Origin: Escherichia coli
GTDB taxonomy: Bacteria; Pseudomonadota; Gammaproteobacteria; Enterobacterales; Enterobacteriaceae
Strand: one strand, 5' to 3'
Length of the DNA: 64,000 bases
NCBI RefSeq assembly: GCF_003334255.1
Contig: NZ_QOWU01000008.1
In this document: in pieces, positions 15,457 through 64,000 of the stretch
Numbering within the stretch: position 1 is the first letter of the stretch
Layout of the letters: every line of letters begins with the position of its first letter
The notes under the pieces: model-generated
Told to the model about the DNA's origin: nothing
Databases searched by the model: none
Seen by the model: only the letters and a program-made list of their open reading frames with translations
Made by a program: the position numbers and the translations under genes

Positions 15457-15921
15457 ATGGAAAAGAAATTACCCCGCATTAAAGCGCTGCTAACCCCCGG
15501 CGAAGTGGCGAAACGCAGCGGTGTGGCGGTATCGGCGCTGCATTTCTATGAAAGTAAAGGGTTGATTACCAGTATCCGTAACAGCGGCAATCAGCGGCGA
15601 TATAAACGTGATGTGTTGCGATATGTTGCAATTATCAAAATTGCTCAGCGTATTGGCATTCCGCTGGCGACCATTGGTGAAGCGTTTGGCGTGTTGCCCG
15701 AAGGGCATACGTTAAGTGCGAAAGAGTGGAAACAGCTTTCGTCCCAATGGCGAGAAGAGTTGGATCGGCGCATTCATACCTTAGTGGCGCTGCGTGACGA
15801 ACTGGACGGATGTATTGGTTGTGGCTGCCTTTCGCGCAGTGATTGCCCGTTGCGTAACCCGGGCGACCGCTTAGGAGAAGAAGGTACCGGCGCACGCTTG
15901 CTGGAAGATGAACAAAACTAA
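15457..15921 (+). CDS. soxR: MerR-family redox sensor SoxR with [2Fe-2S] cluster (154 aa)
   Basis: MerR-type HTH N-terminus and C-terminal [12 protein letters not shown] cysteine cluster. Confidence 0.95.
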
Positions 15922-16054
15922 AGCGCCACAAGGGCGCTTTAGTTTGTTTTCCGGTCTTTGTCTTTCTCTCTATCCCGCTGGTACACAGGAGGGTTTCCCC
16001 CGACGTCAACACACCTCATTCGAGCACGTGGTGGAGGTTCCGGTTGGTGTTGAT
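15915..16054 (-). ncRNA. ryjA: candidate small RNA RyjA/SraL, convergent with soxR
   Basis: Placed from recollection that K-12 carries this sRNA just 3' of soxR on the opposite strand, sharing the terminator hairpin; not verifiable from sequence alone. Confidence 0.35.
15921..15950. terminator. hairpin at the soxR 3' end (AAAGCGCCacaaGGGCGCTTT), likely bidirectional
   Basis: Inverted repeat overlapping the soxR stop, followed by a T-rich tract. Confidence 0.7.
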
Positions 16055-23278: not shown

Positions 23279-23372
<94 letters not shown>

Positions 23373-32467: not shown

Positions 32468-33781
32468 ATGAAAAATATAAAATTCAGCCTGGCCTGGCAG
32501 ATTCTGTTTGCTATGGTGCTGGGCATTCTCCTGGGAAGCTACCTGCACTACCATAGCGACAGCCGCGACTGGCTGGTCGTCAATTTGCTCTCTCCGGCGG
32601 GTGATATCTTCATCCATCTGATTAAAATGATTGTTGTGCCGATTGTGATCTCCACGCTGGTGGTGGGTATCGCGGGTGTTGGTGATGCCAAACAGCTCGG
32701 GCGTATTGGCGCGAAAACCATTATCTACTTCGAGGTGATCACCACCGTCGCCATCATTTTGGGGATCACTCTGGCGAACGTCTTCCAGCCCGGTGCCGGG
32801 GTGGATATGTCGCAGTTGGCGACCGTCGATATCTCGAAATATCAGAGCACTACGGAAGCGGTACAAAGCAGTTCCCACGGCATTATGGGCACGATTTTGT
32901 CGCTGGTGCCGACGAACATTGTGGCGTCGATGGCGAAAGGCGAAATGCTGCCGATCATCTTTTTCTCGGTGCTGTTTGGTCTGGGGCTTTCTTCCCTGCC
33001 CGCGACGCATCGTGAACCGCTGGTGACCGTGTTCCGCTCCATCTCTGAAACCATGTTTAAAGTGACTCACATGGTGATGCGTTATGCACCGGTGGGTGTG
33101 TTTGCGCTGATTGCGGTGACGGTGGCTAACTTTGGTTTCTCGTCTCTGTGGCCACTGGCGAAACTGGTGCTGCTGGTGCATTTCGCCATTCTGTTCTTCG
33201 CGCTGGTAGTGCTGGGAATTGTGGCGCGCCTGTGCGGGTTAAGCGTCTGGATCCTGATTCGTATTCTGAAAGATGAGCTGATTCTGGCGTACTCCACTGC
33301 CAGCTCTGAAAGCGTGCTGCCGCGAATTATTGAGAAGATGGAAGCCTACGGAGCACCGGCGTCGATCACCAGTTTCGTGGTGCCGACCGGTTACTCTTTT
33401 AACCTTGATGGTTCGACGCTGTATCAAAGTATTGCCGCTATCTTCATCGCGCAGTTGTATGGCATTGACCTGTCCATCTGGCAGGAAATCATTCTGGTGC
33501 TGACGCTGATGGTGACCTCGAAAGGGATTGCTGGCGTGCCTGGCGTGTCGTTTGTGGTGTTGCTGGCAACGCTGGGTAGCGTAGGTATTCCGCTGGAAGG
33601 TCTGGCGTTTATTGCTGGTGTTGACCGTATCCTCGACATGGCGCGTACTGCGCTGAACGTGGTGGGTAATGCGCTGGCGGTGCTGGTGATTGCCAAGTGG
33701 GAACACAAATTTGACCGTAAGAAAGCGCTGGCTTATGAGCGTGAAGTGCTGGGCAAATTTGATAAAACTGCGGATCAATAA
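32468..33781 (+). CDS. gltP: glutamate/aspartate:proton symporter, DAACS family (437 aa)
   Basis: Sodium:dicarboxylate symporter fold with GIAGVPG and NVVGNALAV motifs. Confidence 0.92.
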   Translation: MKNIKFSLAWQILFAMVLGILLGSYLHYHSDSRDWLVVNLLSPAGDIFIHLIKMIVVPIVISTLVVGIAGVGDAKQLGRIGAKTIIYFEVITTVAIILGITLANVFQPGAGVDMSQLATVDISKYQSTTEAVQSSSHGIMGTILSLVPTNIVASMAKGEMLPIIFFSVLFGLGLSSLPATHREPLVTVFRSISETMFKVTHMVMRYAPVGVFALIAVTVANFGFSSLWPLAKLVLLVHFAILFFALVVLGIVARLCGLSVWILIRILKDELILAYSTASSESVLPRIIEKMEAYGAPASITSFVVPTGYSFNLDGSTLYQSIAAIFIAQLYGIDLSIWQEIILVLTLMVTSKGIAGVPGVSFVVLLATLGSVGIPLEGLAFIAGVDRILDMARTALNVVGNALAVLVIAKWEHKFDRKKALAYEREVLGKFDKTADQ

Positions 33782-33814
33782 TTGAAGATTGCCGGGGATA
33801 TCCACCCGGCAATG

Positions 33815-34310
33815 TGTGAATGCCTGATGCGACGCTTGCCGCGTCTTATCAGGCCTACGCCAGACAGCGCAATAGCCTGATTTAGCGTGATTTTGTAGGT
33901 CGGATAAGGCGTTTATGCCGCATCCGACATCAACGCCTGATGCGACGCTTAACGCGTCTTATCAGGCCTACGCCAGACAGCGCAATAGCCTGATTTAGCG
34001 TGATTTTGTAGGTCGGATAAGGCGTTTACGCCGCATCCGACATCAACGCCTGCTGCGACGCTTGCCGCGTCTTATCAGGCCTACGCCAGACAGCGCAATA
34101 GCCTGATTTAGCGTGATTTTGTAGGTCGGATAAGGCGTTTATGCCGCATCCGACATCAACGCCTGATGCGACGCTTAACGCGTCTTATCAGGCCTACGCC
34201 AGACAGCGCAATAGCCTGATTTAGCGTGATTTTGTAGGTCGGATAAGGCGTTTACGCCGCATCCGACATCAATGCCTGATGCGACGCTTGCCGCGTCTTA
34301 TCAGGCCTAT
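33815..34310. repeat. REP/BIME cluster: about 4.5 tandem units of 113 bp, each holding two REP palindromes
   Basis: CGTCTTATCAGGCCTAC recurs at 33842, 33955, 34068, 34181 and 34294 (period 113 bp). Confidence 0.9.
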
Positions 34311-34311
34311 C

Positions 34312-35001
34312 TTAACCGTTGGTTAATTTTTCAAACTCTTCACACCCGGTATCAAACCCTTCCATACAGCTCAGGTTCAACCAGTGCAGCGCCTTTTGCT
34401 TGTTCTTCTCGATAAAACCTTCTTCACCGTTTAAGAACATCATTCCCGCCCAGTACTCGGAATAACCGGTTCGGGAAATTGCAGAGCTGCGTTTGAAATA
34501 CCAGGTTGCCTTGTCATCGTCGGCCTTAATGCCCACGCCGTTGGCGTAAATCAAACCAAGCAGCATTTGGGCATCGACGGCAGAGTCGTTCTCCAGATCT
34601 TCCGAGGCGTTTTCTAACAGCGAAATTGCCTTTGGATAATCCGGTTTACCCGCTTGAGTATTTACCAGAATATGCGCCAGCGTTACTTCACCTTCTTTAC
34701 TGCCCGCTTGCGCCGCTTTCTCTGCAAGAACTTTTGCTTGTGGATAGTCCAGACTGACCGGATTGGTGATTTTGATCTGCGCCAGCAGCGCGCAGGCATC
34801 AGCATCACCGCTGTCGGCGGCTTTCTGTGCCCAATATTCGGCTTTGCTCAAATCGCCGGAGCTAAACCAGCTGTCGGCAAGAAAATATTGTGCGCGTCGG
34901 TCCCCGGCCTCTGCTGCCTTTAAATACTGGCTGCCAGGCTCGGAGTCGTTGGCGTGGGCAAAGAATGTCAAAAACAACATCAATGCGATAATTTTTTTCA
35001 T
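34312..35001 (-). CDS. yjcO: Sel1/TPR-like repeat protein with signal peptide (229 aa)
   Basis: N-terminal MKKIIALMLFLTFFAHA signal and repeated AxxWxxKAAxxGxxxA Sel1-like motifs. Confidence 0.8.
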   Translation of the reverse strand: MKKIIALMLFLTFFAHANDSEPGSQYLKAAEAGDRRAQYFLADSWFSSGDLSKAEYWAQKAADSGDADACALLAQIKITNPVSLDYPQAKVLAEKAAQAGSKEGEVTLAHILVNTQAGKPDYPKAISLLENASEDLENDSAVDAQMLLGLIYANGVGIKADDDKATWYFKRSSAISRTGYSEYWAGMMFLNGEEGFIEKNKQKALHWLNLSCMEGFDTGCEEFEKLTNG

Positions 35002-35094: not shown

Positions 35095-37242
35095 TTACGC
35101 CAGTGCCGCTTCGCGCAGGCGAGTTTTCAACTTGTTGTACTCGTCAATCACGTACTGCTCGGCGGCGCGCTGATCGGCGATCGGCTCGACGCGAACGGCG
35201 CAGTATTTGTACTCCGGCGTTTTCGTAATCGGGCTTAAGTTTTCGGTAACCAGCTCGTTACAGGCACCAATCCACCACTGGTAGGTCATGTAAATCGCCC
35301 CTTTGTTCGGACGATCGCTGACCTGCGCACGGGTGATAATTTTGCCTTTACGCGAGTGCACCCAAACCAATGCCTCATCTTCAATACCCAGACGTTTGGC
35401 GTCTTCGGTATTGATTTGTGCGTAGCCAGGTTCATCAGCCAGCGCCGCCAGTGCCGCACAGTTACCGGTCATCGAACGGCAAGAGTAGTGACCAACTTCA
35501 CGCACCGTTGACAGTACCATCGGGTACTCGTCGGTGAGTTTGTCGATTGGCGCTACCCAGTCGCAGGTGAAGAACTGCGCCAGACCGTTCGGGGTATCAA
35601 ACTTCTCTTTAAACAGATAAGAAGTCCCCTGATCGGCATCTGAAGTATCGCGGCAAGGCCACTGAATGAAGCCCAGTTCGCCCATTTTCTCGTAAGTCGC
35701 ACCGTAGAAATCCGGGCACAGATGACGCAACTCATCCCAGATCTCCTGGGTGTTGTTGTAGTGCATCGGATAACCCATACGGGTGGCGATTTCACTGATG
35801 ATTTGCCAGTCCGTTTTCAGATCCCATTTCGGTTCAACCGCCTTGAAGAAACGCTGGAAGCCACGGTCAGCCGCAGTAAACACGCCTTCATGCTCGCCCC
35901 ACGACGTTGACGGTAAAATAACATCCGCCGCCGACGCGGTTTTGGTCATAAAGATGTCCTGAACGATAACCAGTTCCAGATCTTCAAAGGCTTTACGTAC
36001 TGCCGACAGCTCCGCGTCAGTTTGTAGCGGATCTTCGCCCATAATGTACGCGGCACGCACTTCGCCATGCGCTGCGCGGTGCGGCAGCTCGCTGATGCGA
36101 TAGCCGGTATGCGCTGGCAGGCTTTCCACGCCCCAGGCTTTGGCGAATTTCTCGCGGTTAGCCGGATCTTTCACGTACTGGTATCCCGGATACGTATCCG
36201 GCAGCGCGCCCATATCGCAGGCACCCTGAACGTTGTTCTGACCACGAACCGGGTTAACACCCGCATGCGGCTTACCGAGGTTACCGGTCAGCATCGCGAG
36301 GCTGGTCAGAGAACGCACGGTTTCCACGCCCTGGTAGAACTGGGTTACACCCATGCCCCACAGGATGGCGGCGCTTTTCGCCTGGGCATACATCCGTGCC
36401 GCCTGACGAATCTCACTGGCGCTGACGCCGGTGATATCTTCAACCGACTCCGGCGTGTAGCCTTCAACGATTTTACGATACTCTTCAAAGCCTTCTGTAC
36501 GTGAAGCGACGAACGCTTTGTCGTACAGATTTTCTTCAATAATGACATGGCCCATCGCATTCAACAGCGCGATGTTCGAGCCGTTTTTCAGTGCAATGTG
36601 CATGTCAGCAATGCGCGCGGTTTCAATTTTGCGCGGATCGCAGACGATAATTTTCGCCCCGTTACGTTTAGCGTTAATTACGTGATTCGCCACGATTGGG
36701 TGGGAATCCGCCGGGTTGTACCCGAAAACGAACACTAAATCGGTATTATCAATTTCGTTAATAGCATTGCTCATTGCGCCATTACCGACCGATTGGTGCA
36801 GACCTGCAACCGATGGGCCGTGTCAGACACGAGCGCAGCAGTCAACGTTATTGGTACCAATAACGGCGCGCGCAAATTTTTGCATTACATAGTTGGTTTC
36901 GTTACCCGTACCACGCGAGGAGCCGGTCGTCTGGATGGCATCCGGACCGTACTTCTCTTTGATGGCGCTCAGGCGCTCGGCAACGTAATTCAGTGCCTCA
37001 TCCCAGGAAACAGGTTCGAGTTTGCCGCCACGCTGGCGACGGATCATGGGGGTTTTCAGGCGCGGGGTCAGGATCTGGGTATCGTTAATGAAGTCCCAGC
37101 CATAATAACCCTTCAGACACAGGGTACCCTGGTTGGTTTTCCCCTGCGCTGCCTCCGCCCGGACGATTTTGCCGTTATCGACGACCAGGTTGATTTTGCA
37201 ACCTGATGCGCAATAGGGGCAAACCGTGACGACTTTTTTCAT
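35095..37242 (-). CDS. fdhF: formate dehydrogenase H, selenocysteine-containing molybdoenzyme (715 aa)
   Basis: Track ORFs 36823..37242 and 35095..36774 are one reading frame joined by TGA at 36823..36825; N-terminal Fe-S motif CPYCASGC; 2148 nt is 716 codons. Confidence 0.95.
36780..36822 (-). promoter_or_regulatory. SECIS recoding element directly 3' of the fdhF UGA codon (extent approximate)
   Basis: Bacterial SECIS lies immediately downstream of the Sec codon (established); the stretch after TGA is GC-rich and hairpin-prone. Confidence 0.65.
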
Positions 37243-51743: not shown

Positions 51744-52073
51744 ATGAAACGCTTTCCGCTATTTCTTTTATTCACCCTGCTCACGCTGTCCACCGTTCCG
51801 GCCCAGGCCGATATTATCGACGACACCATTGGCAATATTCAGCAGGCGATTAATGACGCTTATAACCCTGACCGTGGGCGAGACTATGAAGATTCGCGCG
51901 ACGACGGCTGGCAGCGTGAAGTGAGCGACGATCGGCGCAGGCAATATGACGACCGCCGCCGCCAGTTTGAAGATCGCCGCAGGCAGCTGGACGATCGCCA
52001 GCGCCAGCTTGATCAGGAGCGTCGGCAACTGGAGGATGAAGAGCGGAGAATGGAAGATGAGTATGGGCGATGA
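51744..52073 (+). CDS. yjdP: small secreted protein with charged DDRRRQ-type repeats (109 aa)
   Basis: Signal peptide MKRFPLFLLFTLLTLSTVPAQA then repeats (DDRRRQYDDRRRQFEDRRRQLDDRQRQLDQERRQLEDEERR). Confidence 0.6.
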   Translation: MKRFPLFLLFTLLTLSTVPAQADIIDDTIGNIQQAINDAYNPDRGRDYEDSRDDGWQREVSDDRRRQYDDRRRQFEDRRRQLDDRQRQLDQERRQLEDEERRMEDEYGR

Positions 52074-61120: not shown

Positions 61121-61208
61121 TGTAGGCCGGATAAGGTGCTTGCACCGCATCCGGCATCAACGCCTGCACATTGTCGGATGCGACGCCGGGGCGTCTTATC
61201 CGACCTAC
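61121..61208. repeat. pair of REP elements between phnD and phnE
   Basis: GTAGGCCGGATAAGGTGCTTGCACCGCATCCGGC and GTCGGATGCGACGCCGGGGCGTCTTATCCGACCTAC. Confidence 0.8.

Positions 61209-63649: not shown

Positions 63650-64000
<351 letters not shown>

Follow-up and report, generated by a model that had tools for sequence, protein, structure and literature searches.

A BIME-2-class REP array between gltP and yjcO in Escherichia coli: unit structure, length alleles and candidate roles

The described system closest to the array considered here is BIME-2, the bacterial interspersed mosaic element of type 2 in the classification of Gilson, Bachellier and Hofnung. Elements of this class are defined by z2 and y units in alternating orientation, a short linker S, a longer flanking motif (s, l or r) and a tandem arrangement in which the number of copies varies between strains (PMC3333891). 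BIME-1 elements are single-copy pairs of Z1 plus Y whose conserved L linker contains an IHF site (PMC3333891); naRNA4, the RNA of the REP325 array between yjdM and yjdN, is by definition a Y plus Z2 pair (PMC4550694). REP/BIME-2 arrays, their copy-number polymorphism between strains (textbook matter) and the gltP–yjcO BIME specifically are all already known, and an oligonucleotide from the gltP–yjcO locus (B319) has already been used as a substrate of the transposase TnpA_REP (Ton-Hoang 2012, PMC3333891).

Here we analyse this array as it occurs at 33822–34310 of the window, the whole stretch of 64,000 nt of Escherichia coli DNA under study. Judged by its sequence, it is an ordinary, previously described BIME-2-class REP array. 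We place a probability of about 0.8 on the joint explanation that a BIME-2-class array occupies the gltP–yjcO gap, that its length changes by unequal exchange or slippage between units, and that it has the RNA and gyrase roles typical of the class. The locus carries little weight as a discovery and is of some practical use; of the side results, the most useful are the allele series that it offers and the differences between K-12 sublines in unit number and composition.

Layout and folding of the gltP–yjcO array

The array is wholly extragenic, lying between the stop of gltP (33781) and that of yjcO (34312). On its left, gltP (CDS 32468–33781, plus strand), a 437-aa ORF annotated by RefSeq in matching genomes as a glutamate/aspartate:proton symporter, has a 3′ UTR that, from the position of the CDS, extends into the array. 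On its right, and convergent with gltP, yjcO (CDS 34312–35001, minus strand; ORF call and RefSeq annotation) encodes a Sel1-repeat protein, and its stop codon (34312–34314) directly adjoins the terminal REP. Among structured RNAs recognized by Rfam, a SECIS element lies at 36776–36830 (minus strand) inside fdhF, the gene just past yjcO, and the sRNA sraL lies at 15914–16054 (minus strand).

Tandem Repeats Finder places a single array at 33822–34309, with a period of 113, 4.3 copies, 96% matches, 0% indels and a score of 920, and in a repeat search of the window the start-to-start distances between repeats were 113, 113, 113 and 113. The exact 113-bp period proposed in an earlier reading of the letters alone (hereafter the sequence-only reading) is thus borne out. 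A 42-bp tandem repeat at 51930–52012 was also reported (2 copies, 78% matches, score 103). Repeat finding and unit alignment divide 33822–34310 into four exact 113-bp units and a fifth, terminal REP of 36/37 nt, which in the unit codes given below read A, B, A (with a private SNP), B* and then A′. The sequence-only reading had counted five REP pairs; its regular array stands and its count does not, the 4.3 units amounting to five Z2-type and four Y-type REPs, or nine REPs.

Each unit has four parts on the plus strand. The first is a 37-nt palindrome of Z2 type, GCCTGATGCGACGCTT(GC/AA)CGCGTCTTATCAGGCCTAC, with coordinates from regular-expression matches: 33822–33858 (loop TTGCC, tail CCTAC; the second hairpin of the Rfam alignment), 33935–33971 (loop TTAAC), 34048–34084 (loop TTGCC, with an A>C SNP at 34053; placed by unit alignment and fold), 34161–34197 (loop TTAAC) and the terminal REP at 34274–34310 (loop TTGCC, tail CCTAT; regular expression and fold). 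This terminal copy behaves as an anchor, being present in nearly every typed allele and truncated in some. The second part is a 36-nt long linker, GCCAGACAGCGCAATAGCCTGATTTAGCGTGATTTT, at 33859–33894, with identical copies at 33972–34007, 34085–34120 and 34198–34233. The third is an inverted 35-nt palindrome of Y type, GTAGGTCGGATAAGGCGTTTA(T/C)GCCGCATCCGACA, at 33895–33929 (beginning GTAGG, with T at unit column 95; regular expression and Rfam alignment), 34008–34042 (C variant), 34121–34155 (T variant) and 34234–34268 (C variant). The fourth, placed by unit alignment, is the 5-nt short linker S, which reads TCAAC at 33930–33934, 34043–34047 and 34156–34160, and TCAAT in unit 4 (34269–34273). 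In an exact-copy search the long linker was found four times in the window and nowhere else there, against 0 in 100 shuffles, so that the regularity of the array is far beyond chance. An assembly artefact was ruled out, the same alleles being present in independent assemblies that include the Sanger-sequenced W3110 and several of MG1655.

The Y-S-Z2 pairs of the array align over the full length of the Rfam naRNA4 covariance model (RF02564; gathering score 59.5 bits), giving four plus-strand matches of 71–79 bits at 33898–33968, 34011–34081, 34124–34194 and 34237–34307; on the minus strand the scores are 40–49 bits, under the threshold. Because the alignment with the Y-Z2 model runs from end to end, the first hairpin of each pair is of Y type and the second of Z2 type. 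With these matches, the BIME-2 layout, and ORF and RefSeq identities for both flanking genes, the claim of a REP/BIME array between gltP and yjcO holds. Elsewhere in the window, single Y-Z2 REP pairs at 23292–23362 and 61125–61205 (both plus strand) score 84 and 69 bits, again above the gathering threshold; the naRNA4 model evidently captures BIME-2 pairs generally.

Two kinds of unit alternate along the array. Columns 17–18 read GC, AA, GC, AA and GC across the units and column 95 reads T, C, T and C, so that the A-B-A-B-A′ alternation is set by three unit columns; the two alternating variants named in the sequence-only reading are exact at these positions. Private differences fall at column 6 (A>C) of unit 3, window position 34053, and at column 113 (C>T) of unit 4, window position 34273. 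Neighbouring units differ at 3–5 of 113 positions and units two apart at 1, and the two 226-bp blocks formed by units 1–2 and units 3–4 differ at 2 of 226.

RNA of the array folds with −254 and −258 kcal/mol on the two strands (z = −10.7 and −11.3 against shuffles). In the fold, the sites that distinguish A from B are the 5-nt Z2 loop and the loop-closing pair of Y, the latter being G.U (T variant) or G-C on plus-strand RNA, and the private SNP at 34053 disrupts a stem pair of the third Z2 REP. This A>C change is in no other allele typed and is common to the strains that are 100% identical to the window (e.g. G1/2).

A further GC-rich hairpin was found by RNA folding at 33788–33813 on the plus strand, with a 9-bp stem (ATTGCCGGG/CCCGGCAAT), an 8-nt loop and no U-tract. 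It begins 6 nt past the gltP stop, from which the first gltP-side REP is 40 nt distant, and every E. coli allele typed retains it, as do two further Escherichia species. A naRNA4 match below the threshold (33790–33855, 48.5 bits) covers this hairpin and the first Z2 REP; the two resemble a degenerate Y-S-Z2 pair, and the hairpin may be a decayed Y unit. At the other end, in the yjcO mRNA, the stem of the terminal REP begins 5 nt past the stop codon in the fold. Intrinsic terminators were called on neither strand between 33600 and 34500, the hairpin at 33788–33813 likewise going uncalled, and the REP hairpins are therefore no terminators of the classical kind. No ORF of at least 40 aa lies wholly inside the array; the only mechanically called one that starts there, of 47 aa (34272–34415, plus strand), runs from the terminal REP antisense into yjcO.

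Alleles and the change of unit number

We coded units by their Z2 loop, column 95 and column 113: A (TTGCC, T, C), B (TTAAC, C, C), B* (TTAAC, C, T), R, a recombinant unit (TTAAC, T, C), and W (TGGTG, T, C, in a unit of 112 nt); A′ denotes the terminal REP only, with loop TTGCC and without a Y variant or short-linker end. The window allele, A B A B* A′, is also that of W3110, both in the Sanger reference and in a new assembly (4 units). An independent assembly of MG1655 has A B A R B* A′ (5 units), Origami2(DE3) has A R B* A′ (3 units), and TOP10 has A R R R B* A′ (5 units), in which the alternation is gone. Other E. coli alleles are W B A B* A′ (L009 and L016), W B A′ (L005), W R B* A′ (L007) and A′ alone (L002), the last within flanks 100% identical to those of the window. 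The typed alleles span 0.3 to more than 6 units.

Single steps relate many of these alleles to one another. MG1655 is W3110 plus one unit, with a crossover in columns 18–95 that yields R, and Origami2 is MG1655 minus 226 bp. L005 is L009 minus 226 bp, and L007 is L009 minus 113 bp, with R generated again. The A′-only allele L002 corresponds to the window allele minus four units, by way of an exchange between the first and last Z2 REPs, whose sequences agree over 36 nt. Unit A joins the terminal REP loop to the linker and Y variant of W, just the hybrid that a W-B-A′ array would yield when shifted by 226 bp. Taken together, the typed alleles are connected by single shifts of 113 bp or 226 bp, all in register, from which recombinant units result. 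The duplication of a 226-bp, two-unit block suggested by the sequence-only reading finds support in the two differences between the blocks and in the allele pairs that lie 226 bp apart (W-B-A′ and W-B-A-B*-A′; MG1655 and Origami2); steps of 113 bp are equally evident.

Since the K-12 derivatives differ in unit number and composition, the array changes on a laboratory timescale. Alleles of a divergent clade (L011, L013 and L014) have up to 6.6 units and no alternation, and L008 is a mosaic; repeated exchange and conversion thus appear to be the rule at the locus.

Side by side with these changes of whole units stands a small difference in the MG1655 reference, NC_000913.3 (L001), whose fifth unit (4296283–4296393) has 111 nt and is 2 bp short, with GTTTACCGCATCC for GTTTACGCCGCATCC. 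Independent MG1655-lineage assemblies have a span of 933 bp against 931 bp, and the typed one, NZ_CP025268.1, has a full 113-nt fifth unit. A ‘yjcO-gltP insertion’ has been reported in 34 of 35 isolates by a resequencing study (PMC6120903). This looks like a reference or stock discrepancy, not an adaptive mutation, and comparison with the MG1655 reference repeatedly turns up apparent ‘mutations’ at the locus.

We infer that units are gained and lost through unequal exchange, driven by their homology, or through replication slippage from one unit to another. In a self-alignment of the window, the longest perfect tract is 219 bp at offset 226 as against 76 bp at offset 113, and this longer uninterrupted identity would favour two-unit steps in alleles that alternate A and B. 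The A-B-A-B*-A′ allele would most simply be an array of the W/A-B-A′ type that gained one 226-bp block. Among the matches listed, genomes with the K-12-type linker mostly have 4 or 2 copies (25 even, 4 odd), an excess of even counts that is consistent with two-unit steps and equally with shared ancestry.

Homology is not the only conceivable agent of these shifts. TnpA_REP, a RAYT (the REP-associated Y1 transposase), could produce both the copy changes and the mosaic units by acting on single-stranded DNA, which it would cleave and join at iREP and linker sites: in vitro it cuts the gltP–yjcO oligonucleotide B319 at four linker sites, and its strand exchange in vitro assembles extra REPs, a route by which, the authors proposed, BIMEs may be amplified (PMC3333891). 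The sites are present in the array, where on the plus strand each Z2 has the iREP site motifs GCC|TGAT and GGCC|TAC and each Y has the 5′ GTAG required for TnpA_REP binding, and all inferred breakpoints fall in intervals (columns 18–95) with TnpA_REP cleavage motifs. Each interval, however, has long homology as well as cleavage motifs, so that the breakpoints fit exchange and TnpA_REP alike, whereas the events themselves are all exact unit multiples in perfect register, as simple homology predicts; the BIME evidence in PMC3333891 is, moreover, in vitro. We regard the transposase as an unlikely agent, and favour homology-driven exchange or slippage between units.

A related question is whether the alternation of A and B records a 226-bp duplication at all, or is instead a by-product of gene conversion, of independent mutations, or of selection for two unit kinds. 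A and B are defined by only three linked columns, two of them adjacent, which gives the pattern small statistical weight within the window. The comparison among alleles cuts both ways. The L008 family alternates TTACC and TTGCC loops in a mosaic pattern with no simple block duplication, and TOP10 illustrates that homogenisation is able to erase alternation; conversion as the origin is nevertheless at odds with the 2 of 226 differences between blocks set against 3–5 of 113 between neighbouring units, with unit A being the exact hybrid predicted from a 226-bp shift of W-B-A′, and with the occurrence of 226-bp-related allele pairs in two backgrounds. As for selection, a loop and a loop-closing pair, where the two variants differ, offer it no obvious target. 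Such origins of the alternation strike us as improbable, and conversion alone is less parsimonious than block duplication.

Across 5,426 complete E. coli genomes, the unit-specific linker was found in 2,809 (52%), in 9,702 copies, with 1–9 per carrier genome (median 4). Insert lengths were measured in 59 systematically sampled chromosomes with a BLAST query made up of only the two flanks. The terminal REP only (35/36 bp) was found in 24 of these genomes, 1.3 units (147–149 bp) in four, 2.3 units (261 bp) in three, 3.3 units (374/375 bp) in two and 4.3 units (487/488 bp) in 12; three genomes had the 135-bp insert of the O157:H7/O55:H7 type, and 11, belonging to a divergent and apparently B2-like clade, had inserts of 103–785 bp. 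In a second systematic sample the terminal REP stood alone in 17 of 39 genomes, which puts the terminal-REP-only genomes at about 41–44% over the two samples. The variation between strains that had been expected for such arrays is therefore confirmed by unit comparison over E. coli genomes, with 1–9 linker copies and inserts from 35/36 to 785 bp. The locus is a clean short VNTR of 0 to about 9 units of 113 bp and separates E. coli lineages, even K-12 sublines. The window's own flanks and array are 100% identical to those of several non-K-12 strains.

Two lineages depart from the common unit. O157:H7 and O55:H7 (L010) have one 100-nt unit, with a 13-nt deletion within the linker, and in the divergent clade (L011–L014) the first Z2 REP is lost and the terminal REP truncated, yet there has been expansion to at least 6 units.

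Beyond E. coli, an exact-pattern scan for the linker among GTDB species representatives, a scan that diverged linkers escape, returned three loci: the gltP–yjcO gap in two Escherichia species and one contaminant contig. The linker is at the equivalent locus in Escherichia sp. E1V33 (5 units) and E. whittamii (2 units), and thus the element predates the diversification of E. coli. The contig, NZ_JAAIYA010000177.1 (240 bp, coverage 0.53), is filed under the myxobacterium Pyxidicoccus caerfyrddinensis; it is identical to K-12-type units, including the R unit, and is almost certainly E. coli laboratory contamination.

Candidate functions

REPs at 3′ ends block 3′–5′ exonucleases. By analogy, both the gltP and the yjcO transcripts would end in stable REP hairpins that block such enzymes. 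Given a gap with no intrinsic terminator, the hairpins would also act as leaky, partly Rho-dependent attenuators. REP325 has been characterized as a leaky, partly Rho-dependent terminator that stabilises the upstream mRNA, and REPs between convergent genes as accompanied by higher expression of both genes, many of them within predicted bidirectional terminators (bioRxiv 10.64898/2026.03.23.713779). The same work finds REP effects to be strongly context dependent, with no general gain in half-life (Harris et al., bioRxiv 10.64898/2026.03.23.713779); gltP and yjcO do not appear in its main text, and its supplement lists both only in expression tables (Harris 2026).

At the level of DNA, the array would be favoured by gyrase, in a region that convergent transcription supercoils; gyrase cleavage sites are enriched in BIME-2, mainly in Y units, and this enrichment is independent of transcription (PMC6379681). 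At the level of translation, REPs less than 16 nt from a stop codon can reduce it (Liang et al., as cited in PMC12306157). The yjcO-proximal REP, with its stem 5 nt past the stop, lies within this distance and may reduce YjcO translation, and the first gltP-side REP lies at 40 nt.

A more specialized role would make the array a battery of sRNA genes, in which plus-strand Y-Z2 pairs are processed from the gltP 3′ UTR into HU-binding, nucleoid-condensing RNAs like naRNA4, itself a processed RNA of about 77 nt. The four plus-strand matches above the gathering score speak for it, as does the polarity of Y-Z2 relative to the upstream gene, which is that of REP325, and naRNA4 plus HU has been reported to condense DNA, with about 80% of REPs transcribed (Qian et al., PMC4550694). 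The Rfam model, however, is essentially a Y-Z2 REP pair, so that any BIME-2 will match it, and the inter-hairpin spacer of the gltP–yjcO array is 7 nt shorter. REP325/naRNA4 has itself since shown no measurable nucleoid compaction and been reassigned to local 3′ UTR regulation (bioRxiv 10.64898/2026.03.23.713779), and about 41–44% of the sampled genomes have no Y-Z2 unit at the locus, only the terminal REP. We hold such a battery to be very improbable, and return to the class-type RNA and gyrase roles as the preferred reading.

How far the number of units matters to those roles is a separate matter. The extra units are dispensable, since about 41–44% of the sampled genomes have the terminal REP alone, and the frequency of the single-REP allele argues that they have little or no selective value; additional units are probably close to neutral. 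It is doubtful, to our mind, that the array is a fast-mutating heritable dial akin to a contingency locus, with unit number, in steps of 113 or 226 bp quick enough to tell K-12 sublines apart, setting the expression of gltP and/or yjcO or the local supercoiling, and TnpA_REP perhaps catalysing part of the change in vivo at the sites that it cuts in vitro. The natural alleles of 0.3, 1.3, 2.3, 3.3, 4.3 and 5.3 units in near-identical flanks nonetheless form a ready-made series, in which an effect of REP hairpin number on termination, mRNA decay, near-stop translation or gyrase activity could be sought.

Relation to described REP elements

The array shares with BIME-1 (RIB/RIP) the placing of REPs in inverted pairs at the 3′ ends of transcription units. 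It is not a member of that class, being a tandem array of Z2 units with no match to the IHF core consensus WATCAANNNNTTR within 33822–34310; the nearest approach to the consensus in the array, read from the sequence, is in the long linker, with one mismatch. The sequence-only reading had included IHF binding. IHF sites belong to BIME-1 (PMC3333891), and for want of a core consensus in the array we have dropped this part of it. A CRISPR array was also considered and rejected, the 36-nt ‘spacers’ being identical in all four units and the repeats being of two kinds in opposite orientation.

With REPIN/RAYT systems the locus shares an imperfect, inverted REP doublet, here Y-S-Z2, with GTAG...CTAC as its bounds. 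REPINs are dispersed doublets, whereas the gltP–yjcO element is a tandem array at a fixed locus.

A closer parallel is the REP325/naRNA4 array (yjdM–yjdN), which like ours is a tandem of Y-Z2 pairs with the same polarity to the upstream gene, all pairs matching RF02564 above threshold. Part of REP325 is present in the window, at 63681–64000 on the minus strand, with three full naRNA4 matches up to the window edge. The two arrays differ in dimensions and setting: the period is 100 bp in REP325 and 113 bp in the gltP–yjcO array, the inter-hairpin spacers are of 13 nt and 5 nt, and the long linkers, which differ, are of 17 nt and 36 nt, respectively; REP325 lies between tandem genes and scores 107–111 bits, the gltP–yjcO array between convergent genes with scores of 71–79 bits.

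The likeness is fullest with BIME-2 itself. The array has Y and Z2 palindromes in alternating orientation, the Z2 units ending in CCTAC and the Y units starting with GTAGG on the plus strand; a short linker within the head-to-head pair; tandem copies that vary in number between strains and are conserved within the locus; and an extragenic position at 3′ ends. Nothing essential sets it apart from that class, and its 36-nt long linker is specific to the locus.
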